22,525 nt of DNA from positions 1-22,525 of the forward strand of contig JAKSVZ010000014.1 in the NCBI GenBank assembly GCA_024407725.1. The letters run 5' to 3'. Shown piece by piece: positions 2,040-22,525 of this stretch. Position numbers and translations under genes: made by a program. The stretch comes from Opitutales bacterium. Lineage in GTDB: Bacteria > Verrucomicrobiota > Verrucomicrobiia > Opitutales > UBA9783. The notes beneath the pieces are model-generated. The model was not told the origin of the DNA and made no database searches. It was given only the letters and a program-made list of their open reading frames with translations. Each line of letters starts with the position of its first letter. Positions within the stretch are counted from its first letter, which is position 1.

Positions 2040-3869
2040 TTAGTTGCGTTTGGATACTCTTTTGGTTTTTGCAGGCTTTGTACCCTTTTCGCCCGCTTCT
2101 TCTTGGGCGCTAAGGCTTCCATTGGGATTTAAATGCAACTGACGCAGCTGTTCCAACAAGGCTTTGTTGTCTGCGCGGCGATTTTTTTCCAAAATCTCAT
2201 CAATAGCGCTTTGGCTGATCGTATCCTCTTCTTCCAAAAATCCTTTGATTTGATGGATACGCATAGGATGGCGCATCTTACGCAGGGCTTTTGCTTCAAT
2301 TTGACGGATACGTTCGCGGGTTACTTGGAATTTCTTGCCCACCTCTTCTAGCGTGTGGCTATAACCGCCATTTAAACCAAAACGCAGGACAATGACGCTG
2401 CGTTCGCGTTCAGTTAGGGTATCCAAAACCGCCAAAAACCGTTCTTTCAAGAGGTTATAAGCAGCAATTTCGGAAGGATTACCGCTGGATTTATCTTCAA
2501 TAAAATCACCTACGCAACTATCTTCGTTGGTGCTGGTTGGACTTTGTAACGAGATAGGTTGTTGAGCCATCTTAAAGACGTTTTTCGCCGTATCAACCGG
2601 TATTTGAGCGGCTTCTGCAATTTCTTCAATCGTTGGGTCATAACCCAGCTCTTGGAACAATTGTTTTTGCGCTTGAGTTAGCTTATTCAACACTTCAATC
2701 ATGTGAACCGGCATACGAATCGTACGCGCTTGATCAGCGATAGAACGCGTAATGGATTGACGAATCCACCACGTAGCATAGGTCGAAAACTTATACCCGC
2801 GGATATATTCAAATTTTTCAACCGCGCGCATTAGACCGACATTTCCTTCTTGGATTAAATCGAGGAAGGATAAGCCGCGATTGGTGTATTTTTTGGCAAT
2901 ACTGATGACCAAACGTAGGTTGGATTCAACCATTTTGGATTTTGCAGCGTCGGCCTTTTGGGTATTCGACCGAACCACTTGCACCATTTTAACGAAATCG
3001 CTAGGTTTTATGCGCAATTGATACTCAATTTCCTGCAAACGCTTTTTCATTTCGTTTTTAGGTAATGCTTGAGGATCGTTTGCCGGAATTCCGTCTTTTA
3101 AATATTTATTGTATTTTTCGATTTCTCGAACGGTAGGAGAGTACTGATCTAAGAAATCTTCAAACAGCTTTAGTTTGAAACAGAACTTTTTGAAAATAGG
3201 CTTTAAATGGCGCTCATACTCATGGTAACGCTTGAATAACGTTTCCTTTTTCTTGGCATTGCTTTCATCCCAGTATTTTTGCCATAACGTATTGATTTGG
3301 GTTTTGAGCGTTTTGCATTGATTGATTAATTTCGGCAGATCTTCATAATACTCTGCGCGATTCATGACTTTTTTCTCAATCACCAATTGATCAAAGCGTT
3401 CGTTATGATCGATCAATTTATTCGCCAAATCCAATTGATAATCAAGGGATAAGGAGAATGAAAATAGTTGATCAAACGCAGTATGTTCTGCCTGCTCAAT
3501 ATCCTTTGAAATTTGAATTTCTTGTTCGTAGGTCAACAATGGGATCGAACCCATTTGTTTGAGGTACATGCGAACAGGATCTTCTACTCCATCGGGCGTA
3601 CTACTTAAAGCTGCATCGATTTCCTCATCTTTGTCAGAAGACAAAATATCTTCTTCCGCCGTATCGATTACCTTAATGTGTAATCCCTCGAGGATGTTAA
3701 CGACCTTTTCGAGTTCGCTGGCAATCGCAATGGTATCCGGTAAAATACGACTGATGTCTTGAATCGATACAGTCGATTTTTGTTGCTTCGATAGATCGAT
3801 GAGCTGACGGATTTTTTCGTCTAAAATCTCATCCGCTTTAATAACTTTTACCTTGCGAGAAAATGGCAT
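2040..3869 (-). CDS. rpoD: Primary RNA polymerase sigma factor (sigma-70 family, RpoD), 609 aa
   Basis: Region 1.2 [11 protein letters not shown], region 2 [55 protein letters not shown], region 4.2 [29 protein letters not shown]. It sits directly downstream of dnaG with a 12-nt gap, as in the classical dnaG-rpoD operon. Confidence 0.97.
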
Positions 3870-8920: not shown

Positions 8921-10234
8921 TTACAAATCTCCGAGCATAAACATTAATTCAGCCGACGAAACTACCTGATCGGCTACTAAGCATTGCGCTTCGGCGTATC
9001 CAATACAATTGTTTTTTATTTTAAGCAATTTTGCTTCGATGCGCAATTGATCGCCGGGTTGAACAATATGACGGAATTTTACCTTATCCGCACTCATGAA
9101 AAACACCTGTTTGTTTTGGGCGCTTGTATTGAGTTTGATGCCCAACAGGATACCCGCGGCTTGCGCCATGGCTTCAACCTGTAACACGCCTGGAAACACC
9201 GGATTTTCAGGGAAATGTCCGGTAAAGCACGGTTCATTGATGGTGATGTTTTTAAGCGCGACCAAGGTATTATCTTGTATGGCCAACACGCGATCGACCA
9301 TGGCAAAGGGGTAACGGTGCGGTAATAGCTTTAAAATTCCATGAATATCAATGGCAGCGGACGAATTGGATGGCGATAATGGCAGCGCCGTTTGTTCTTC
9401 TTGTGCCAAAATAGCTTTGGTTAAGCGCGCATTGAGCGTATGTCCGGTCTTAATCGCAATGATATGCCCTTTAATCGGATGTCCTACTAGGGATAAATCT
9501 CCCAAAATATCCAATATTTTGTGGCGTACGAACTCATCCGCATAACGCATGGGGCCGTTTGATAAGTATTTATCGCCCTTGATAACCACGGCGCAATCCA
9601 AGGTACCGCCTTTAATCTTCCCCAACTTCAGCAGCGGTTCGATATCCTCATAGGTTGTGAATGTGCGGGCAGCAGCGATCTCACTTGCGTAGGTGTTGGG
9701 ATCAATCGTGAGCGATAAATGCTGCGTGTGGGTTTTACGGCTATCCGTTGAGGTGCATGTAATTTTCAACGTCTCGCAGGGTAATGCGAGCAAGGAACGA
9801 TCTCCATCTACAATGGAAATGGGTTCCATGATTTCCCAGCAAAACGCTTCGGCTTTTTGCGTTATAATTTCGGCTTTTGTTAACGCTTCGACCCAAGGCT
9901 GTGCGGAACCATCCAAAATAGGCAGTTCGCATCCATTGACCTCAACGGTTAAGTTGGTAATTCCCAATCCGTAGCAGGCGCTTAATAAATGCTCAATCGT
10001 ATTGATTTTTACCCCATCCTTATTAAGGGTGGTGTTGCGTAAGCAATCCGATGGGTTTAAATGCTCGATGGTTGCTGGAATTTGTACGGTATGTCCCTTG
10101 TGGGTTACTTGAAATAGAATTCCTTGATTTTCAGGTGCTGGGCATAAAACAGCCTTAGTAGCTTCTCCGGTATGAAGGCCATTACCGGCTACTTCGATTC
10201 TATTTTTAATCGTTTTTTGTACTAACGAACTCAT
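8921..10234 (-). CDS. lpxC/fabZ: Bifunctional UDP-3-O-acyl-GlcNAc deacetylase / 3-hydroxyacyl-ACP dehydratase (LpxC-FabZ fusion)
   Basis: The N-terminal ~280 aa are LpxC-like (TIKNRIEVAGNGLHTGE..., NTIEHLLSA, HKILDILGDL). The C-terminal ~145 aa are FabZ-like (LLPHRYPFAMVDRV..., CFTGHFPENPVFPGVLQVEAMAQ). It is one continuous 437-aa ORF. Confidence 0.93.
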   Translation of the reverse strand: MSSLVQKTIKNRIEVAGNGLHTGEATKAVLCPAPENQGILFQVTHKGHTVQIPATIEHLNPSDCLRNTTLNKDGVKINTIEHLLSACYGLGITNLTVEVNGCELPILDGSAQPWVEALTKAEIITQKAEAFCWEIMEPISIVDGDRSLLALPCETLKITCTSTDSRKTHTQHLSLTIDPNTYASEIAAARTFTTYEDIEPLLKLGKIKGGTLDCAVVIKGDKYLSNGPMRYADEFVRHKILDILGDLSLVGHPIKGHIIAIKTGHTLNARLTKAILAQEEQTALPLSPSNSSAAIDIHGILKLLPHRYPFAMVDRVLAIQDNTLVALKNITINEPCFTGHFPENPVFPGVLQVEAMAQAAGILLGIKLNTSAQNKQVFFMSADKVKFRHIVQPGDQLRIEAKLLKIKNNCIGYAEAQCLVADQVVSSAELMFMLGDL

Positions 10235-17000: not shown

Positions 17001-17032
17001 AAAAAAACGCATGCAAATTGCATGCGTTTTTT
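17001..17032 (-). terminator. Rho-independent, bidirectional-looking terminator downstream of the outer-membrane protein gene
   Basis: The A7 run (17001-17007) precedes a perfect palindromic hairpin, CGCATGCA-AAT-TGCATGCG (17008-17026). A T6 run (17027-17032) follows it. It lies 25 nt beyond the OMP stop codon (17058). Confidence 0.85.
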
Positions 17033-17057
17033 GTTATTTCTTTAACAGTTAGTTAGA

Positions 17058-17846
17058 TTAGAACTGTAATCCAGCACCGATAAAGAATTGATCCGACTTT
17101 AGATTGGCTTGCTTATCCCAGTCGTTACCTAACATACGGGAAGTTCCGATTTGCTTGGTGGCTACATGACGATAACCGAAGTCAAACAAGATCGCTTGCC
17201 AGTTGATACGTCCGAAGATCATGAAGTTGTACATGAACATTCCAGCATGTAGGTATCGATGACCTACAACACTCTTAGCGCCACCGAAGAGCCCCCCATT
17301 ATTCAATTTGGGAGTAATTATCGTTGTGAACCTTGTTGCGGAATATCCACCACCGATACCACCGGCGATACATACAGAAGCCCAGTCCAATAGGTATTGC
17401 TCATAAGTCAAGTTAACCATTGCGCCTACCATACGGATGTTTTTAGGAGCTAATTGTAGATTGTCAATCTGGTCATCCACAACCATCGCTGGAATCTCAG
17501 CATCTTTCAAAATGTTCTTGGAGGCTAAAAATCCATCATCCTTTTTGAATTTAGCATAAGCACCCATGATTTCGAAATCGACATTGATGCCAGCGAAATT
17601 CCAAATATCATACATCGAACCAAAAGCAACCGATAAATTCTTGTGGCTCTTGTATTCAGGTTTTTCTAATTCATCCAATCCCTTTTGTGTCTCTTCGTGA
17701 TTACAAGTAACCTTGTCTTGAGCTTTGAGGGAGCCAAATCCGCTACGTACCATTACGTAATGTCCTACGGCACCTTCACCTACGCTAGCGAACAATGCAC
17801 TGCTGGATACAGCACCGCATAACGCCATTAATAATTTTTTATTCAT
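17058..17846 (-). CDS. Outer-membrane beta-barrel protein (porin/OmpA-barrel-like), 262 aa
   Basis: Signal peptide MNKKLLMALCGAVSSSALFASVG, alternating amphipathic beta-strand pattern, aromatic girdle residues, and the C-terminal terminal-Phe signature FFIGAGLQF. Good RBS (AAGGA) upstream of the ATG. Confidence 0.8.
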   Translation of the reverse strand: MNKKLLMALCGAVSSSALFASVGEGAVGHYVMVRSGFGSLKAQDKVTCNHEETQKGLDELEKPEYKSHKNLSVAFGSMYDIWNFAGINVDFEIMGAYAKFKKDDGFLASKNILKDAEIPAMVVDDQIDNLQLAPKNIRMVGAMVNLTYEQYLLDWASVCIAGGIGGGYSATRFTTIITPKLNNGGLFGGAKSVVGHRYLHAGMFMYNFMIFGRINWQAILFDFGYRHVATKQIGTSRMLGNDWDKQANLKSDQFFIGAGLQF

Positions 17847-17925: not shown

Positions 17926-19407
17926 CTAAACTTTAAATAAAGCATTGAGTTTTGTCAACGTCTTTTTTGCATCTCCATAGATCATACGAACGGAATCTTT
18001 TGTAAACAGAGCATTTTCTAAGCCGGAATAGCCGCTGCCAGAACCGCGTTTGAGGATCAATACATTTTTAGCTTTGGATACTTCCAAAATGGGCATGCCG
18101 TACAAAGGTGAATTGGGGTTATCGACTGCATCGGAATTAACCACATCGTTTGCTCCGACCACAATGACCACATCGGTATTGGGGAAGCGTTCGTTGGCGG
18201 CTTCTAATTCGAGCAGTTGGTCATAATCCACATCGGCTTCTGCCAATAAAACATTCATGTGACCGGGCATACGTCCTGCCACGGGATGGATAGCAAAGAA
18301 CACTTCGGCCCCATGCTCCATCAGTTTTTGTGCGAAATCCTTAAGGGCATGTTGTGCTTGAGATACGGCGAGGCCATAACCAGGGACAATTCCGATCGTG
18401 CGGGCGGCCTCAATAGGATAATACGCATCCTCGATGGATAATTCTTTGGGGGTCTTATTGCTACTAGATTGCGCTTTGGTGGCTGTTGTTTTGAACCCTC
18501 CTAATAATACTTTAAGGATGGAACGGTTCATGGCCTTGCACATGATAACCGTTAAAATAAGGCCGCTGGTTCCTACCAGACAACCGGCAACAATCAGGAC
18601 TTTGTTTAAGGAAATAAGACCGGCTGCACAGGCTGCTAACCCTGAAAGGCTATTGAGCAGGGAGATGATGACGGGCATGTCCCCTCCTCCGATATGAAGT
18701 GTCCATAGAATTCCTGCAGCCAAGCACCAAATAATAACACCTATAAAGGGCGCCATGGTATCCCCATAGGCATAGGTTAAGGAGCGAGGGCCTAACCAAC
18801 GGTAGGAGCCAGCAATCAGCCCGATTAATAAGATAATATCCACGGCGCGTTGACCAGGGAAGGTGATAGATTTGCTGGGGAGCTTGCGGCTAAGTTTGCC
18901 ATAGGCTACTAAACTGCCCGTAAAGGTAATGCCTCCGATAATCACTGCCAACACAATGGCGATTTGTTCAAAATAGAGAGCAGGGCTATAAGGGGCTTGC
19001 GACCATGATATTTGATTAGCTATAAACTGATAGATAAGTTGATGGGTTGCCCGTGGGGTAGCAAACCATTCTGCAGGTAATGGGCGCATCAACTTTAGGC
19101 CTTCTACAATCCCAATCGCCCAGCTGGCTAATCCACCGAAGCCGTTAAATAGGGCGACCAGTTCGGGCATAGCGGTCATCTGAACTTTAATTGATAAGAT
19201 GAAGCCCAAAATCGCTCCTATTAATACGGTAAGGGATACCCAAAGCGGATTGGGTACGGGATAAGCGTATAAAGTGACGCTGATGGCGATTCCCATGCCG
19301 ATAGCAGAAATGAGATTTCCTTGGCGCGCGCTTGTGGCCTTTCCCATTTGCTTAATGCCGGTAATGAGTAAAATAGCAGCCAAAATGTAACCGCAATCAG
19401 CAATCAT
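17926..19407 (-). CDS. pntB: NAD(P) transhydrogenase subunit beta PntB
   Basis: N-terminal multi-TM domain plus C-terminal NADP(H)-binding dIII (GYGLAVSQAQH, HPVAGRMPGHMNVLLAEA, VIVVGANDVVN). Its start overlaps the pntAB stop (ATGA, 19404-19407). Confidence 0.95.
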   Translation of the reverse strand: MIADCGYILAAILLITGIKQMGKATSARQGNLISAIGMGIAISVTLYAYPVPNPLWVSLTVLIGAILGFILSIKVQMTAMPELVALFNGFGGLASWAIGIVEGLKLMRPLPAEWFATPRATHQLIYQFIANQISWSQAPYSPALYFEQIAIVLAVIIGGITFTGSLVAYGKLSRKLPSKSITFPGQRAVDIILLIGLIAGSYRWLGPRSLTYAYGDTMAPFIGVIIWCLAAGILWTLHIGGGDMPVIISLLNSLSGLAACAAGLISLNKVLIVAGCLVGTSGLILTVIMCKAMNRSILKVLLGGFKTTATKAQSSSNKTPKELSIEDAYYPIEAARTIGIVPGYGLAVSQAQHALKDFAQKLMEHGAEVFFAIHPVAGRMPGHMNVLLAEADVDYDQLLELEAANERFPNTDVVIVVGANDVVNSDAVDNPNSPLYGMPILEVSKAKNVLILKRGSGSGYSGLENALFTKDSVRMIYGDAKKTLTKLNALFKV

Positions 19408-19694
19408 CGATTTTCCTTATCTTTTGCATGAAACATTTTAAGCATGCGATCGGTTACCGCATAGCCACCTACAATGTTTAAGGTTGCGAACAAGATGCCG
19501 CCATAAGCTAAGATGGTTGTAATGCAATCAGTAGTGTGCGATAGAGCGATAAAAGCGCCTATGAGGGTAATGCCTGAAATCGCGTTGGTTCCTGACATTA
19601 AAGGGGTATGAAGCTGAGAGGGAACCTTTGTGATGAGCTCAAGCCCCAGCCAACTTGCTAAAACAATACAAATACCTAACCAACCGTATTCCAT
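19404..19694 (-). CDS. pntA: NAD(P) transhydrogenase subunit alpha part 2 (PntAB, membrane segment)
   Basis: 96-aa, three/four-helix membrane protein with LHTPLMSGTNAISGITLIGA, typical of the split-alpha PntAB. Translationally coupled to pntB. Confidence 0.88.
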   Translation of the reverse strand: MEYGWLGICIVLASWLGLELITKVPSQLHTPLMSGTNAISGITLIGAFIALSHTTDCITTILAYGGILFATLNIVGGYAVTDRMLKMFHAKDKENR

Positions 19695-19744: not shown

Positions 19745-21715
19745 TTACTTTATAGGATCTTCGGTTTTGATTGGCTCTTCGGTTGCTGAGGATGTCGTTT
19801 CTTGTTCAGGGAAAAGATAATTTTTTGCTTCCATTAAAATTCTCTTTATGTCTTCTACAGCACCATCCGAAAAGATTTTATACCTCAAATTCTTTTCTAA
19901 ATTGGCTAAGGTTGTTTCTTTACCACCAACTAGCGTTTGAAAATACGATTGTACAGCGCTTTTACAGTCTTTTTCTTCTTCTTTATTAGTGACTTTTAGA
20001 ACATCCTTCATAATGTCCGCATTATCCCAATCGGGGGTCGTATTATCGGTTAAGTTATTAAATCGGTTTTTAAACCTGTTATCTTGAGTGTTTTTTGAGA
20101 ATTCCCGATAGAATTCTACGCTAAAATAATTTTCAAGTTCTCGTGTTTTGGTATGTGTCAAGCCAGGCTGATCAGGTTCATTACCATCGTCCTTGTCCAT
20201 AATCATGAACGTGAACAGTCCGCATAATTCTGATAATACATTATGTGGGTTTTTCATAGTGTCCTTGCCCTGAGCGTTTATAATGTATATCTTCTTTGAT
20301 GTATCAAAAATTTCTTTGAAGTCGGAAATATTGTTAATGTTCTCAAAAAAACGTTGATCGCATAAGCCTTCAACCAATAAAAAGTTCTTGGAAAAATAGG
20401 GAAGAAGCCCCATTTCTTCTATGAGTTTTCGTTTGTTTCCTTCGATTTTTTCAGCTTTGCCGTTTTGAACCAACACTGTCTGACTGCTTATTTCTGGTAT
20501 ATTTACTATCTCCGGCGTATGGGTTGTGAATAAGACTTGGTGATGGCCTGTTTTGGAAAGGGTTAGGATGGTTTTAAGCAAGTGTAATTGCCAATCGGGA
20601 TGTTGACCGATTTCCGGTTCCTCTAGGGCGTAAATTACGTTTCTGCCTTCATTGTTTTGCTCTTTTGCTTCTGCTTTGAAAAGAGCAAACAACAATAGCC
20701 GATTAAGTCCACTTCCCTGTTGTTCTATAGGAAGTCCGGTTTGATCTTTAAAGCTATAATCAAATAATGATAGCGCATGCTTGTTATTTAGTTGGGTATG
20801 TTCTGTTAACTGGAATGAATTCTTTAGGTTTTCAGGAAAATCTACTTTTATCTGCTCATTTATCGCTTCGGTGCTTATTCCCAATTCTTTTTCTACATTG
20901 CTTTGCAACTCATTAAGTTGTGGTTGTAGTTTCTCAATTATTTTGTCATTAATTTTTTTAGTAAAATCCGACGTGTTTTTATTGTTTGAGTAGGATATAG
21001 TATCCGCTTTGAATAGGTAATACCGAGGAAGCGCCTTCAGTATGTACTGACAAAATGTATTACAGTCGTCCTCACTTGTGTCGATATAGATTTTGCCTGC
21101 TTCCCTTTTAAGCCTGCTTTGGTTGGGTTGATAGATTTCCCAGAGCTTTTGGCGTAATTTCGGTTTGCTATAATATTTTTTATCATTGGGTGCCAAGAAG
21201 TTGTATGTACTTTTGAGTTTATCAAAAGATAGGCAGCTAAGTGGGCGGTCATGATATGTGAGATGTTCTTTTGGGCAGATGTATTTTGTTGTGTAGACTT
21301 GATTTTGTTTTCCCCAAGTAAACCTTTTGGTGATGGTTAACCTACTTTTTTCATCGAGGAAGTGTTCAGCCGCTAAAGTGGTTATGTCCCCGCTGGGTAA
21401 TATAATGTCTGCATCGCCAGCAATCTCAAACGAGCAGGTGATTTCTATAGAGTCGGATTGCTCTCTCTCTCTCTCTCTCTCTCTCTCGGGCTCAACATGC
21501 CTATCGTTTTCGGTAAGCTCATCGTCATCGGAAAAAAAGATATCCAACGCCTTTAATATGGTTGATTTTCCGCAGTTATTTTTACCGACAATGGCGCAAA
21601 GATCTTGGAACTCAATGGTTATATCTTTAAAAATCCTGAAATTCTTTAAGGTTAAGCTTCTGAGTTTGCAGGAGTTAGCTAATGATTTTTTTGATAAAGG
21701 TTCTTCCGTGGACAT
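19745..21715 (-). CDS. OLD-family-like nuclease: N-terminal ABC-type ATPase with a long helical insertion, fused to a C-terminal Toprim/DUF4435-like domain (candidate standalone defence nuclease)
   Basis: Walker A GKNNCGKST (aa ~44-52), QQGSGLNRLLLFALF signature-like loop, Walker B VIYALEEPEIGQHP, H-loop VLFTTHTPE. The C-terminal Toprim motifs are FLLVEGLCDQRFF (catalytic Glu) and FMIMDKDDG (DxD), comparable to E. coli YbjD LLVEGETE / VLVDGDEAG. The gene is visibly more AT-rich and Lys/Asn/Ile-rich than its neighbours. Confidence 0.75.
   Translation of the reverse strand: MSTEEPLSKKSLANSCKLRSLTLKNFRIFKDITIEFQDLCAIVGKNNCGKSTILKALDIFFSDDDELTENDRHVEPEREREREREQSDSIEITCSFEIAGDADIILPSGDITTLAAEHFLDEKSRLTITKRFTWGKQNQVYTTKYICPKEHLTYHDRPLSCLSFDKLKSTYNFLAPNDKKYYSKPKLRQKLWEIYQPNQSRLKREAGKIYIDTSEDDCNTFCQYILKALPRYYLFKADTISYSNNKNTSDFTKKINDKIIEKLQPQLNELQSNVEKELGISTEAINEQIKVDFPENLKNSFQLTEHTQLNNKHALSLFDYSFKDQTGLPIEQQGSGLNRLLLFALFKAEAKEQNNEGRNVIYALEEPEIGQHPDWQLHLLKTILTLSKTGHHQVLFTTHTPEIVNIPEISSQTVLVQNGKAEKIEGNKRKLIEEMGLLPYFSKNFLLVEGLCDQRFFENINNISDFKEIFDTSKKIYIINAQGKDTMKNPHNVLSELCGLFTFMIMDKDDGNEPDQPGLTHTKTRELENYFSVEFYREFSKNTQDNRFKNRFNNLTDNTTPDWDNADIMKDVLKVTNKEEEKDCKSAVQSYFQTLVGGKETTLANLEKNLRYKIFSDGAVEDIKRILMEAKNYLFPEQETTSSATEEPIKTEDPIK
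21461..21487. repeat. Perfect dinucleotide microsatellite (CT)13C, read as (GA)n on the coding strand, inside the ATPase-Toprim gene
   Basis: Direct reading: 27 uninterrupted alternating C/T bases flanked by G on both sides. It is translated on the minus strand as EREREREREQ (codons ~76-85), just downstream of the Walker A helix. Confidence 0.97.
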
Positions 21716-21781
21716 TTTAAAAAATTAAATTACTAGGCATGTTAGCCTAAAATTTATAAAAAGCAAAAAATTTTGCGAATT

Positions 21782-22480
21782 TTACTGAACCGGCGGCAGG
21801 GGGGTTGGTTCTTGTTCGCCGGACAAAACCGCGTACGGTACGCCGCAATCGCCTAGTTTTGCGATTTGACGTGCCATGTGCTTAAGCGTCCAGCGATGGC
21901 TAATGAAATTGGTTGCATTGAAAAACAGTAGTTTTAGGTCAACGCTGATGGAGCGATGTTCTAGGTAAAACAACGATAAGCGGGAGCGTATGGGTTTGCA
22001 GATCTGATGAAAGGTTTGCTCTGGGTTATCGTGTTGGGCTAGGAAACGCCCCATGCGCGACAAGAAAATAGATGCAAAATCGGAAATGCCGGGGGTTAAA
22101 CGCATGACCTGCTTTTCTTTGGCGCTATAGGTTTTCCATTCGCTAAATACGACGGGGCGCGGCCCTATTAACAACATATCGCCTTTAATGACATTGATCA
22201 GTTGTAAAAACTCATCGATTTTAAAACGCCGAAATATACGCCCAACCAAGGTGATTTCAGGGGAATTGGAAGGAACGGTGATGTGAGACGAACGGATCCG
22301 CATGGTACGCATTTTAAACATGAGGAAGGGTTTTCCGTTTTTACCGATTCGCGTGTGGATAAACAGCGGATGTTTGAAGTCGCTAATCCACATAATACCG
22401 AAGGAAATAATCAAAACAGGCGTTAAGAGGAGCAACAATACTGCCGCCAATACTCGTTGTGTATAATCCCAAATTGCCAT
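21782..22480 (-). CDS. Small bacterial sugar transferase (PglC/WbaP C-terminal-domain type polyprenyl-phosphate phosphoglycosyl transferase)
   Basis: The re-entrant N-terminal helix (RVLAAVLLLLLTPVLIISFGIMWI) is followed by HPLFIHTRIGKNGKPFLMFKMRTM, ITLVGRIFRRFKIDEFLQLINVIKGDMLLIGPRP and LTPGIS. These match the bacterial sugar-transferase family. The ATG at 22480 is the preferred start. The ORF stays open to a TTG at 22522, 3 nt from the window edge. Confidence 0.8.
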   Translation of the reverse strand: MAIWDYTQRVLAAVLLLLLTPVLIISFGIMWISDFKHPLFIHTRIGKNGKPFLMFKMRTMRIRSSHITVPSNSPEITLVGRIFRRFKIDEFLQLINVIKGDMLLIGPRPVVFSEWKTYSAKEKQVMRLTPGISDFASIFLSRMGRFLAQHDNPEQTFHQICKPIRSRLSLFYLEHRSISVDLKLLFFNATNFISHRWTLKHMARQIAKLGDCGVPYAVLSGEQEPTPLPPVQ

Positions 22481-22525
22481 GAATATTGATTTTATAAAAG
22501 GGATTTGATGAGCGGGTGGCAACCT

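Follow-up and report, generated by a model that had tools for sequence, protein, structure and literature searches.

What kind of enzyme is encoded by an orphan gene that joins an ABC-type ATPase to a Toprim domain among housekeeping genes, and what might its host keep it for? The question is raised by a contig of an Opitutales bacterium (GenBank assembly GCA_024407725.1, JAKSVZ010000014.1, positions 1 to 22,525), the whole of which was analysed and is referred to below as the window, and it concerns the gene at 19745-21715 on the minus strand (hereafter the OLD gene, encoding the OLD protein). A preliminary description, made from the letters of this DNA, had read the product as a single-chain OLD-family nuclease, either a Class 1 OLD or a fusion of the AriA-AriB type. 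As detailed below, the gene is probably an intact, very divergent, standalone OLD-family nuclease, Class 1 by gene context, for which innate defence is the most likely role.

Few Class 1 OLDs have been studied (those of P2, Thermus and Vibrio, and YbjD of E. coli), and they differ in both substrate and trigger; OLD nucleases have been cited at a DefenseFinder figure of 0.45% of genomes (PMC12392090). The OLD protein is a very divergent but intact member from Verrucomicrobiota, a phylum without any studied one. What is new at this locus is a deletion scar in Verrucomicrobia bacterium UBA3869, which shows that the OLD gene was ancestral to the site and which amounts to a natural "knock-out" allele in a sister species: the gene is dispensable yet selectively maintained.

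Domain Organization and Conserved Residues

Conservation was read from two alignments, A1 (the OLD protein and 28 relatives, 29 sequences), to which the statements on conserved residues refer unless A2 is named, and A2 (13 C-terminal domains, of the protein and 12 relatives). An AlphaFold2 (AF2) model of the full protein was built on A1 (predicted local distance difference test, pLDDT, 71; predicted template modelling score, pTM, 0.59), together with a C-terminal model of amino acids (aa) 425-656 (pLDDT 69, pTM 0.68). The features of the gene are as follows.

19745..21715, minus strand: complete, uninterrupted open reading frame (ORF) with an ATG start, 656 aa and a stop codon, for the OLD-family ATPase-Toprim protein (ORF listing and translation)
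20504..21667, minus strand: ABC-type ATPase domain including the inserted beta/helical (dimerisation-type) region, aa 17-404 (Pfam AAA_15, E=7.8e-54)
21560..21586, minus strand: Walker A / P-loop GKNNCGKST, aa 44-52; G44, N46, G49, K50 and S51 invariant
20699..20716, minus strand: ABC signature-like motif GSGLNR, aa 334-339, with GSG at 334-336; G334, G336 and R339 invariant
20600..20635, minus strand: Walker B and D-loop, VIYALEEPEIGQH, aa 360-372; E365, E366, P367, E368 and H372 invariant
20513..20527, minus strand: H-loop TTHTP, aa 397-401; H399 invariant
20126..20395, minus strand: Toprim nuclease core, aa 441-530; PF20469 over aa 441-509, with LLVEGLCD (E449, D453) and MDKDDG (D507, D509)
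19811..20125, minus strand: C-terminal helical region, aa 531-635, closing with the family-conserved last helix GAVEDIKRILMEAKNYL
19748..19810, minus strand: low-complexity acidic/Thr-Ser tail, aa 636-656; pLDDT <50, missing from every relative in A1
19749-19784, minus strand: 18-nucleotide tandem duplication (direct repeat) within the tail, encoding EEPIKT/EDPIK
21458-21493, minus strand: low-complexity run EPEREREREREQ after the Walker A helix, aa 75-86; found in no relative

The identical protein has been recorded once in the sequence collections, as "ATP-binding protein [Opitutales bacterium]" from a metagenome-assembled genome (MAG). Within its AAA_15 region a Pfam AAA_21 match was nested (E=8e-20), the Walker B motif ALEEPE occupied aa 363-368, and Q393 was also invariant. 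The D-loop His corresponds to H283 of Thermus scotoductus (Ts) OLD, which acts in trans (PMC7049728); the ATPase carries the full catalytic set including this residue. The ~280 residues separating Walker A from the signature motif had been taken for a helical insertion. In the AF2 model they are not purely helical, a beta-rich ABC subdomain (aa 89-148) standing ahead of the long helices (aa 246-351).

In the Toprim core, E449, G450, G483, D507 and D509 were invariant and D453 was conserved in at least 90% of the sequences, and the motif T522...E528-x-Y530 ("ELENY") was invariant in A2. The OLD-like_TOPRIM family PF20469 scored 30.5 bits on the whole protein (up to 32.6 across scans) against a gathering cut-off of 23.2. 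It was found in 7 of the 13 isolated C-terminal domains and scored higher on the OLD protein than on most relatives, and the precomputed Pfam list showed the closest relatives without it. Downstream of the core, AF2 placed helices at aa 533-634 with low to moderate confidence. The quoted motifs are all in register with those of the homologues, far beyond chance. Every ATPase and Toprim motif quoted in the preliminary description was present, either invariant or at least 90% conserved, and its single-chain OLD-family architecture was likewise borne out by AAA_15, PF20469 and the fold matches given below.

Assignment to Class 1 of the OLD Family

The classes of OLD nucleases are defined through gene context (PMC10568477; PMC12796447). 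In agreement with the preliminary description, ORF, Pfam and Rfam checks of the 22,525-nucleotide window revealed no adjacent helicase, reverse transcriptase, DUF4435 or second Toprim gene, and the Rfam scan returned tRNA only, with no retron RNA. The neighbourhoods of six relatives likewise showed no recurring partner gene, a UvrD/PcrA-like helicase included. Proteins of 258-269 aa beside four relatives were considered as a hidden partner and discarded, being mutually unrelated by all-against-all blastp.

By sequence profile, the PADLOC model "Old" was the best full-length match (4.5e-35, 119.5 bits), and since this model already recognises the protein, no new category is opened. The strongest GajA model stood at 3.7e-23, and ATPase-Toprim_I-B, a model of the retron type, at 6e-17. 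A sequence search of the PDB placed the Class 1 Ts OLD first (6p74, 1e-10), followed by GajA (~1e-9) and by AriA (2e-6, ATPase part only). For the C-terminal part, the alignment profile gave nothing significant against PDB sequences, neither OLD nor AriB (best match, the small Toprim protein 1t6t at E=0.19); sequence profiles were thus unable to rank the classes there, and a fold search was used. With the full model, Foldseek matched GajA (1.6e-16), Ts OLD (7.8e-16) and the retron Eco8 OLD effector (1.6e-14) over ~670-740 columns each. With the C-terminal model, the four best matches were OLD C-terminal regions of Xanthomonas and Burkholderia (6njw, 6nk8; E=4.5e-3 to 1.8e-2, probability 0.96-1.0, ~228 aligned columns), and no AriB chain was among the top 50. 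The two sequence comparisons and the two fold searches, four independent lines, all point to the OLD family.

Compared with the known systems, the OLD protein most resembled Class 1 (Ts OLD 6p74, phage P2 Old, Vibrio cholerae Vc OLD and E. coli YbjD/OldB). Members of that class likewise stand alone in variable, non-operonic contexts, and they agree with it in the ATPase motifs (D-loop His included), in the metal A residues E...DxD and in the acidic residue of ExxxD. Among relatives of solved structure, Ts OLD came closest by sequence; it was also one of the top fold matches over the full length, where the Foldseek alignment showed ~14% identity. The OLD protein differs from the Class 1 systems in its length (656 aa vs 528 to ~590 aa), in a 16-aa N-terminal extension, an (ER)n insertion and the acidic tail, in a shortened segment from DxD to beta4, and in its verrucomicrobial host. 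It also apparently has a helical region of ~100 aa after Toprim, whereas the Toprim domain of Ts OLD has neither the Insert 3 helix nor a C-terminal helical domain (PMC7049728).

These post-Toprim helices, modelled with low confidence (pLDDT 45-70), aligned with the C-terminal regions of class 2, and 6nk8 and 6njw (Toprim plus helical domain) were the best whole-length matches of the C-terminal model. From the DxD strand to the one that follows it, the model has no helix, which is consistent with the lack of Insert 3 in Ts OLD. Since published phylogenies place Class 2 inside the diversity of Class 1 (PMC12796447), we treated the modelled helices as a variation within the OLD kind. GajA (8sm3, 8x5i) shares the two-domain fold and was the top Foldseek match, but the gajB-type UvrD/PcrA/Rep-like helicase of Class 2 was absent beside the OLD gene and the relatives examined, and the GajA models scored well below "Old". 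The Class 3 retron Eco8 effector matched in fold over the full length and, in the N-terminal part, through NCBIfam retron_eff_Eco8 (E=1e-11), but the latter score of 44 bits is far under the 250-bit cut-off, and the window contains no reverse-transcriptase ORF or non-coding RNA of that system.

A Deletion Scar in the Sister Genome UBA3869

A scan with PntB collected 80 verrucomicrobial loci, the best of which was L005 of Verrucomicrobia bacterium UBA3869 (DGGR01000022.1). This locus was collinear with the window on both sides of the OLD gene at 89-91% nucleotide identity: the blastn blocks paired window 22525-21686 with L005 8721-9561 and window 19753-7894 with L005 9657-21479, so that only 95 bp separate the flanking blocks in UBA3869. 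The segment concerned is as follows.

19866..21685, no strand: segment absent at the syntenic position in UBA3869, where ~1.82 kb was deleted internally

In place of the gene, UBA3869 has a 42-codon ORF (L005 9532-9660, MLTEEHSSEKI-GAVEVLKDRLKQAK...). Its first ~10 codons match the N-terminus of the OLD protein (MSTEEPLSKKS) and the rest matches the last ~35 OLD codons (GAVEDIKRILMEAK...). In an alignment with strict gap penalties and a shuffle control, window 19865-19767 and the 3' part of this scar (L005 9564-9661) reached a local score of 48, as compared with 22.4 +/- 2.6 (maximum 32) for 200 shuffles. We also observed that this part is ~70% identical, vs ~90% for the flanks, as expected of a neutral remnant.

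Because the scar is homologous to both ends of the OLD ORF, the gene must have been present at the site in the common ancestor, with ~1.82 kb subsequently lost in UBA3869; and because GAV(E/D)xI is the conserved C-terminal helix across the subfamily, the scar derives from an OLD gene and not the reverse. An insertion in the window genome was therefore ruled out, the indel being an internal gene deletion in UBA3869, and so was a chimeric contig as the cause of the odd GC content, both ORF ends being homologous to the scar. Within 10 kb of pntB, no OLD homologue was found in any of the 80 Verrucomicrobia loci. This absence, together with the deletion in UBA3869, indicates that the OLD gene is accessory and dispensable; a universally conserved core gene, which the preliminary description had named as the finding that would overturn its reading, is not what was found.

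Selection and Base Composition

Between UBA3869 and the window genome, six flanking gene pairs gave synonymous divergences (dS) of 0.19-0.35 and nonsynonymous divergences (dN) of 0.012-0.035, the former translating to ~0.1-0.17 neutral substitutions per site per branch. Random substitutions were simulated in the 656-codon OLD ORF, and the frame was scored as open or interrupted.

0.03 substitutions/site: ORF open in 5.5%, mean of 3.0 stop codons
0.05 substitutions/site: ORF open in 0.8%, mean of 4.8 stop codons
0.10 substitutions/site: ORF open in 0/5000, mean of 8.8 stop codons
0.15 substitutions/site: ORF open in 0/5000, mean of 12.3 stop codons

The intact ORF, with every invariant residue kept, thus points to purifying selection, assuming vertical descent since the split.

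The OLD gene has a GC content of 0.373 and a third-position GC (GC3) of 0.384, the lowest of the 18 window genes, the others having 0.41-0.48 and 0.42-0.55, respectively. Its second-position GC (GC2) is 0.307, and its Lys/Glu/Asn-rich sequence adds to the low GC. The preliminary description was right that a gene of deviant composition stands here among housekeeping genes; its further claim that this is the only AT-rich gene held insofar as it is the most AT-rich of the 18, and failed in that low GC occurs elsewhere (0.36 in half of rpoD, 0.42 in a gene for an outer-membrane protein (OMP)-like product). The dip in rpoD (2040-3869, minus strand, 609 aa), where the variable, non-conserved N-terminal half falls to GC 0.36, shows that low GC by itself is no marker of foreign DNA in the window. 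The composition of the OLD gene fits an older horizontal acquisition, as a foreign AT-rich accessory gene.

Proposed Reaction Mechanism

By analogy with the solved systems, an ATP-controlled, probably dimeric, two-metal Toprim nuclease is the best-supported model of the OLD protein. The N-terminal ABC-type ATPase, probably dimerising via its inserted domain, would bind and hydrolyse ATP and thereby control the C-terminal Toprim nuclease, which would cut nucleic acid by two-metal catalysis with E449/D507/D509 and D453/E528 as the proposed ligands. The residues were mapped onto those of Ts OLD (PMC7049728) as follows.

Metal A: Ts OLD E377, D431 and D433 correspond to E449, D507 and D509 (proposed, by analogy)
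Metal B: Ts OLD D381, S478 and E480 may correspond to D453, E526 or T522, and E528 (by analogy)
Transition-state residue: Ts OLD R487, not placed

D453 and the invariant E528 match the metal B pattern, with an unusually short spacing from D509 to E528.

The most likely role of such an enzyme would be in innate defence, with phages or other mobile DNA as the target. Once an infection is sensed, it might attack replicating foreign DNA by nicking or degradation, in the manner of Ts OLD, which nicks and degrades DNA (PMC7049728), and of Vc OLD, a DNA nickase by which phage replication is blocked and which requires both active sites in vivo (PMC12392090). Alternatively, it might act on structured RNA, for instance the anticodon stems of tRNAs, like P2 OLD, which cleaves both strands of these stems in a manner dependent on ATP hydrolysis (PMC12445682). 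We favour an anti-phage or anti-mobile-element role, with DNA as a slightly likelier target than tRNA. The earlier statement that the role of standalone OLDs is poorly defined outside P2 is by now only partly true (PMC12392090, PMC13261556, PMC12445682).

Relatives and Their Genetic Contexts

An exhaustive phmmer search of 1.84 billion representatives gave 5094 matches at E<=1e-3, 757 at E<=1e-10 and 104 at E<=1e-30. At 90% identity the OLD protein formed a cluster of its own, and neither the 5.8-billion nor the 1.84-billion set contained a close homologue; its relatives came from Bacteroidota, Actinomycetota and others. The subfamily comprises ~100 clusters at 50% identity matching at E<=1e-30, most members having 600-630 aa, and its genes are often carried by conjugative plasmids or as Tn7 cargo.

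In annotated collections, relatives were located on 371 plasmid records, 293 of them conjugative, so that the subfamily, common as it is on conjugative plasmids, would offer a more tractable setting for functional work. Among 50,697 phage records only four weak matches were obtained, by which a phage origin was ruled out. One relative, on an IncHI2A plasmid, lies directly after Tn7-like tnsD and accessory genes. This protein (L088, E. coli pEC476, NZ_AP027418.1 145188-147014; 608 aa, annotated "AAA family ATPase") is encoded two small genes after tnsD, and relatives of its type are widespread on conjugative plasmids of Salmonella, E. coli and Enterobacter, which makes them a tractable model for the subfamily. 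Other relatives adjoin an LlaMI restriction enzyme and a Dcm methylase (Psychrobacter plasmid) or a HigB/HI1420 toxin-antitoxin pair and a methyltransferase (metagenomic), or lie near an MmeI-type enzyme and an ArdC-like protein (Tenacibaculum); further ones sit among ordinary metabolic genes, as is typical for Class 1 OLDs.

A set of 507-508-aa proteins from Bacteroidaceae MAGs (P0014, P0006, P0008, P0011 and others) comprises the nearest ATPase relatives (28-30% identity); these lack a Toprim and end in an unrelated C-terminus of ~100 aa (…EIIRHQIHHPENTLNPRY…). Such proteins suggest effector-domain swapping on a common ATPase chassis.

Tentatively, the protein and its subfamily could also be viewed as an uncharacterised standalone OLD clade with its own trigger and substrate, engaged mainly in plasmid/mobile element-phage conflicts; we regard this as possible, though doubtful. 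Double-stranded RNA stems of tRNAs would be a possible candidate substrate of such a clade, by comparison with P2 OLD, and the copy in the verrucomicrobium would represent a case of chromosomal domestication within it.

Points Against the Assignment and Alternative Explanations

Several observations weigh against an intact Class 1 defence nuclease. Even the best non-self relatives (596-625 aa, E=7.7e-55) share only 31-33% identity with it, and the confidence of the structure models is moderate (pLDDT 71 for the full and 69 for the C-terminal model). Between DxD and the next strand the protein has ~20 residues fewer than its relatives (A1 columns ~708-735); the Toprim core is thus trimmed, with only 19 residues between D509 and the putative metal B Glu, and the alignment gave no confident placement of the metal B ligands and the transition-state Lys/Arg. 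The immediate neighbourhood of the gene is no defence island. Finally, in the hairpin-bearing 66-nucleotide upstream spacer, a scan for sigma-70-like promoters, which leaves other promoter types uncovered, detected none.

The other half of the preliminary reading, a fused Class 4 (PARIS-type) AriA-AriB/DUF4435 protein that would be triggered by phage anti-restriction proteins and cleave tRNA, is very improbable. PARIS consists of AriA and AriB-DUF4435, with rare fusions, and shares with the OLD protein an AAA_15-type ABC ATPase and a VEGxxD Toprim effector, this motif being common to the Toprims of OLD and DUF4435. Moreover, AriA chains were matched in the PDB, and the "AriA" model was the highest-scoring one in PADLOC (2.1e-51). 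It covers only the ATPase (aa 17-404), however, matches the generic Pfam AAA_15 in both length and coordinates, and is therefore uninformative on class; by sequence, Ts OLD and GajA both outscore AriA. PARIS has two genes where the OLD protein has one, and the C-terminus matches OLD-like_TOPRIM and "Old" rather than DUF4435 and AriB. The earlier impression that this C-terminus is "at least as DUF4435-like" found no counterpart: Pfam gave no DUF4435 match on the whole protein at E<=1 or on the 13 isolated C-terminal domains at E<=10, PADLOC on the isolated C-terminal domain returned "Old" as the sole match (1.4e-5) without any AriB model, and the fold search retrieved OLD C-terminal regions. 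On these grounds the fusion was dropped and the Class 1 OLD retained.

A non-immune, housekeeping function of the OLD ATPase/nickase in chromosome biology or the cell cycle, like that of archaeal Cran1, which shows that non-defence roles of OLDs are possible (PMC12796447), would agree with an ORF maintained by selection and co-oriented among core genes (rpoD, dnaG, ligA, lpx, lpt, pnt). It is nevertheless quite improbable, considering that the gene was deleted in UBA3869 with its flanks intact, is absent from the same neighbourhood in the 80 loci, lacks close homologues in either large set, deviates in composition, and has relatives scattered over phyla and plasmids. An inactive or decaying relic, or a re-purposed ATPase whose trimmed Toprim no longer cuts and which would itself account for any phenotype, deserves somewhat more weight but is still unlikely. 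The ~20-residue deletion in Toprim, the lineage-specific low-complexity stretches (an ERERERERE run as well as the acidic tail) and the loss in the sister lineage all speak for it, as does YbjD of E. coli, which gives phage phenotypes even without its Toprim domain (PMC13261556). Against it, all invariant Toprim acidic residues and the ENY motif are kept, the ORF is intact where neutral drift predicts ~9-12 stop codons, and PF20469 scores better here than on most relatives. An intact nuclease of Class 1 hence remains the probable reading.

Host and Gene Neighbourhood

The host belongs to Opitutales (PVC group), without any sign of an intracellular lifestyle. The preliminary description had considered an intracellular, chlamydia-type host, of which only the PVC part was correct: the protein is recorded from an Opitutales MAG, and its flanks are ~90% identical to UBA3869. 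On one side the OLD gene is bordered by a Bac_transf sugar transferase (21782-22522), on the other by pntAB/pntB (17926-19694). Farther along the window are the OMP-like gene, tRNA-Glu, ligA, an MFS transporter, rfaE, an M48 peptidase, a HIT protein, lpxC-fabZ, lpxA, dnaG and rpoD. Near the OLD gene no integrase or transposase ORF and no junction tRNA was found, and the repeats were short and at chance level only. One further feature lies upstream of the gene.

21733..21750, minus strand: terminator-like hairpin in the spacer that separates the sugar-transferase gene from the OLD start codon (terminator scan), kept in UBA3869 (junction alignment)

Some minor observations were made on the neighbouring genes. 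The 437-aa ORF at window 8921-10234 (minus strand) fuses LpxC (PF03331, aa 6-276) with a FabZ/FabA-like dehydratase (PF07977, aa 304-428), and an ORF of equal length (437 aa) occupies the syntenic position in UBA3869 (L005 19139-20452). The genes pntAB (4TM, 96 aa) and pntB are located at window 17926-19694 (minus strand) and L005 9714-11482; in neither genome does pntAA (dI, AlaDH-like) precede pntAB, the upstream neighbour being the sugar transferase, to which the window adds the OLD gene. The OMP-like gene at 17058-17846 (minus strand) encodes a 262-aa protein with a signal-peptide-like N-terminus, a GC content of 0.42 and no Pfam match at E<=1e-5, which may be a lineage-specific outer-membrane beta-barrel protein. 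In the gap between this gene and tRNA-Glu, a 34-nucleotide stretch (17002-17035) matches L005 12354-12387 in inverted orientation with 94% identity, and is probably a palindromic terminator hairpin.

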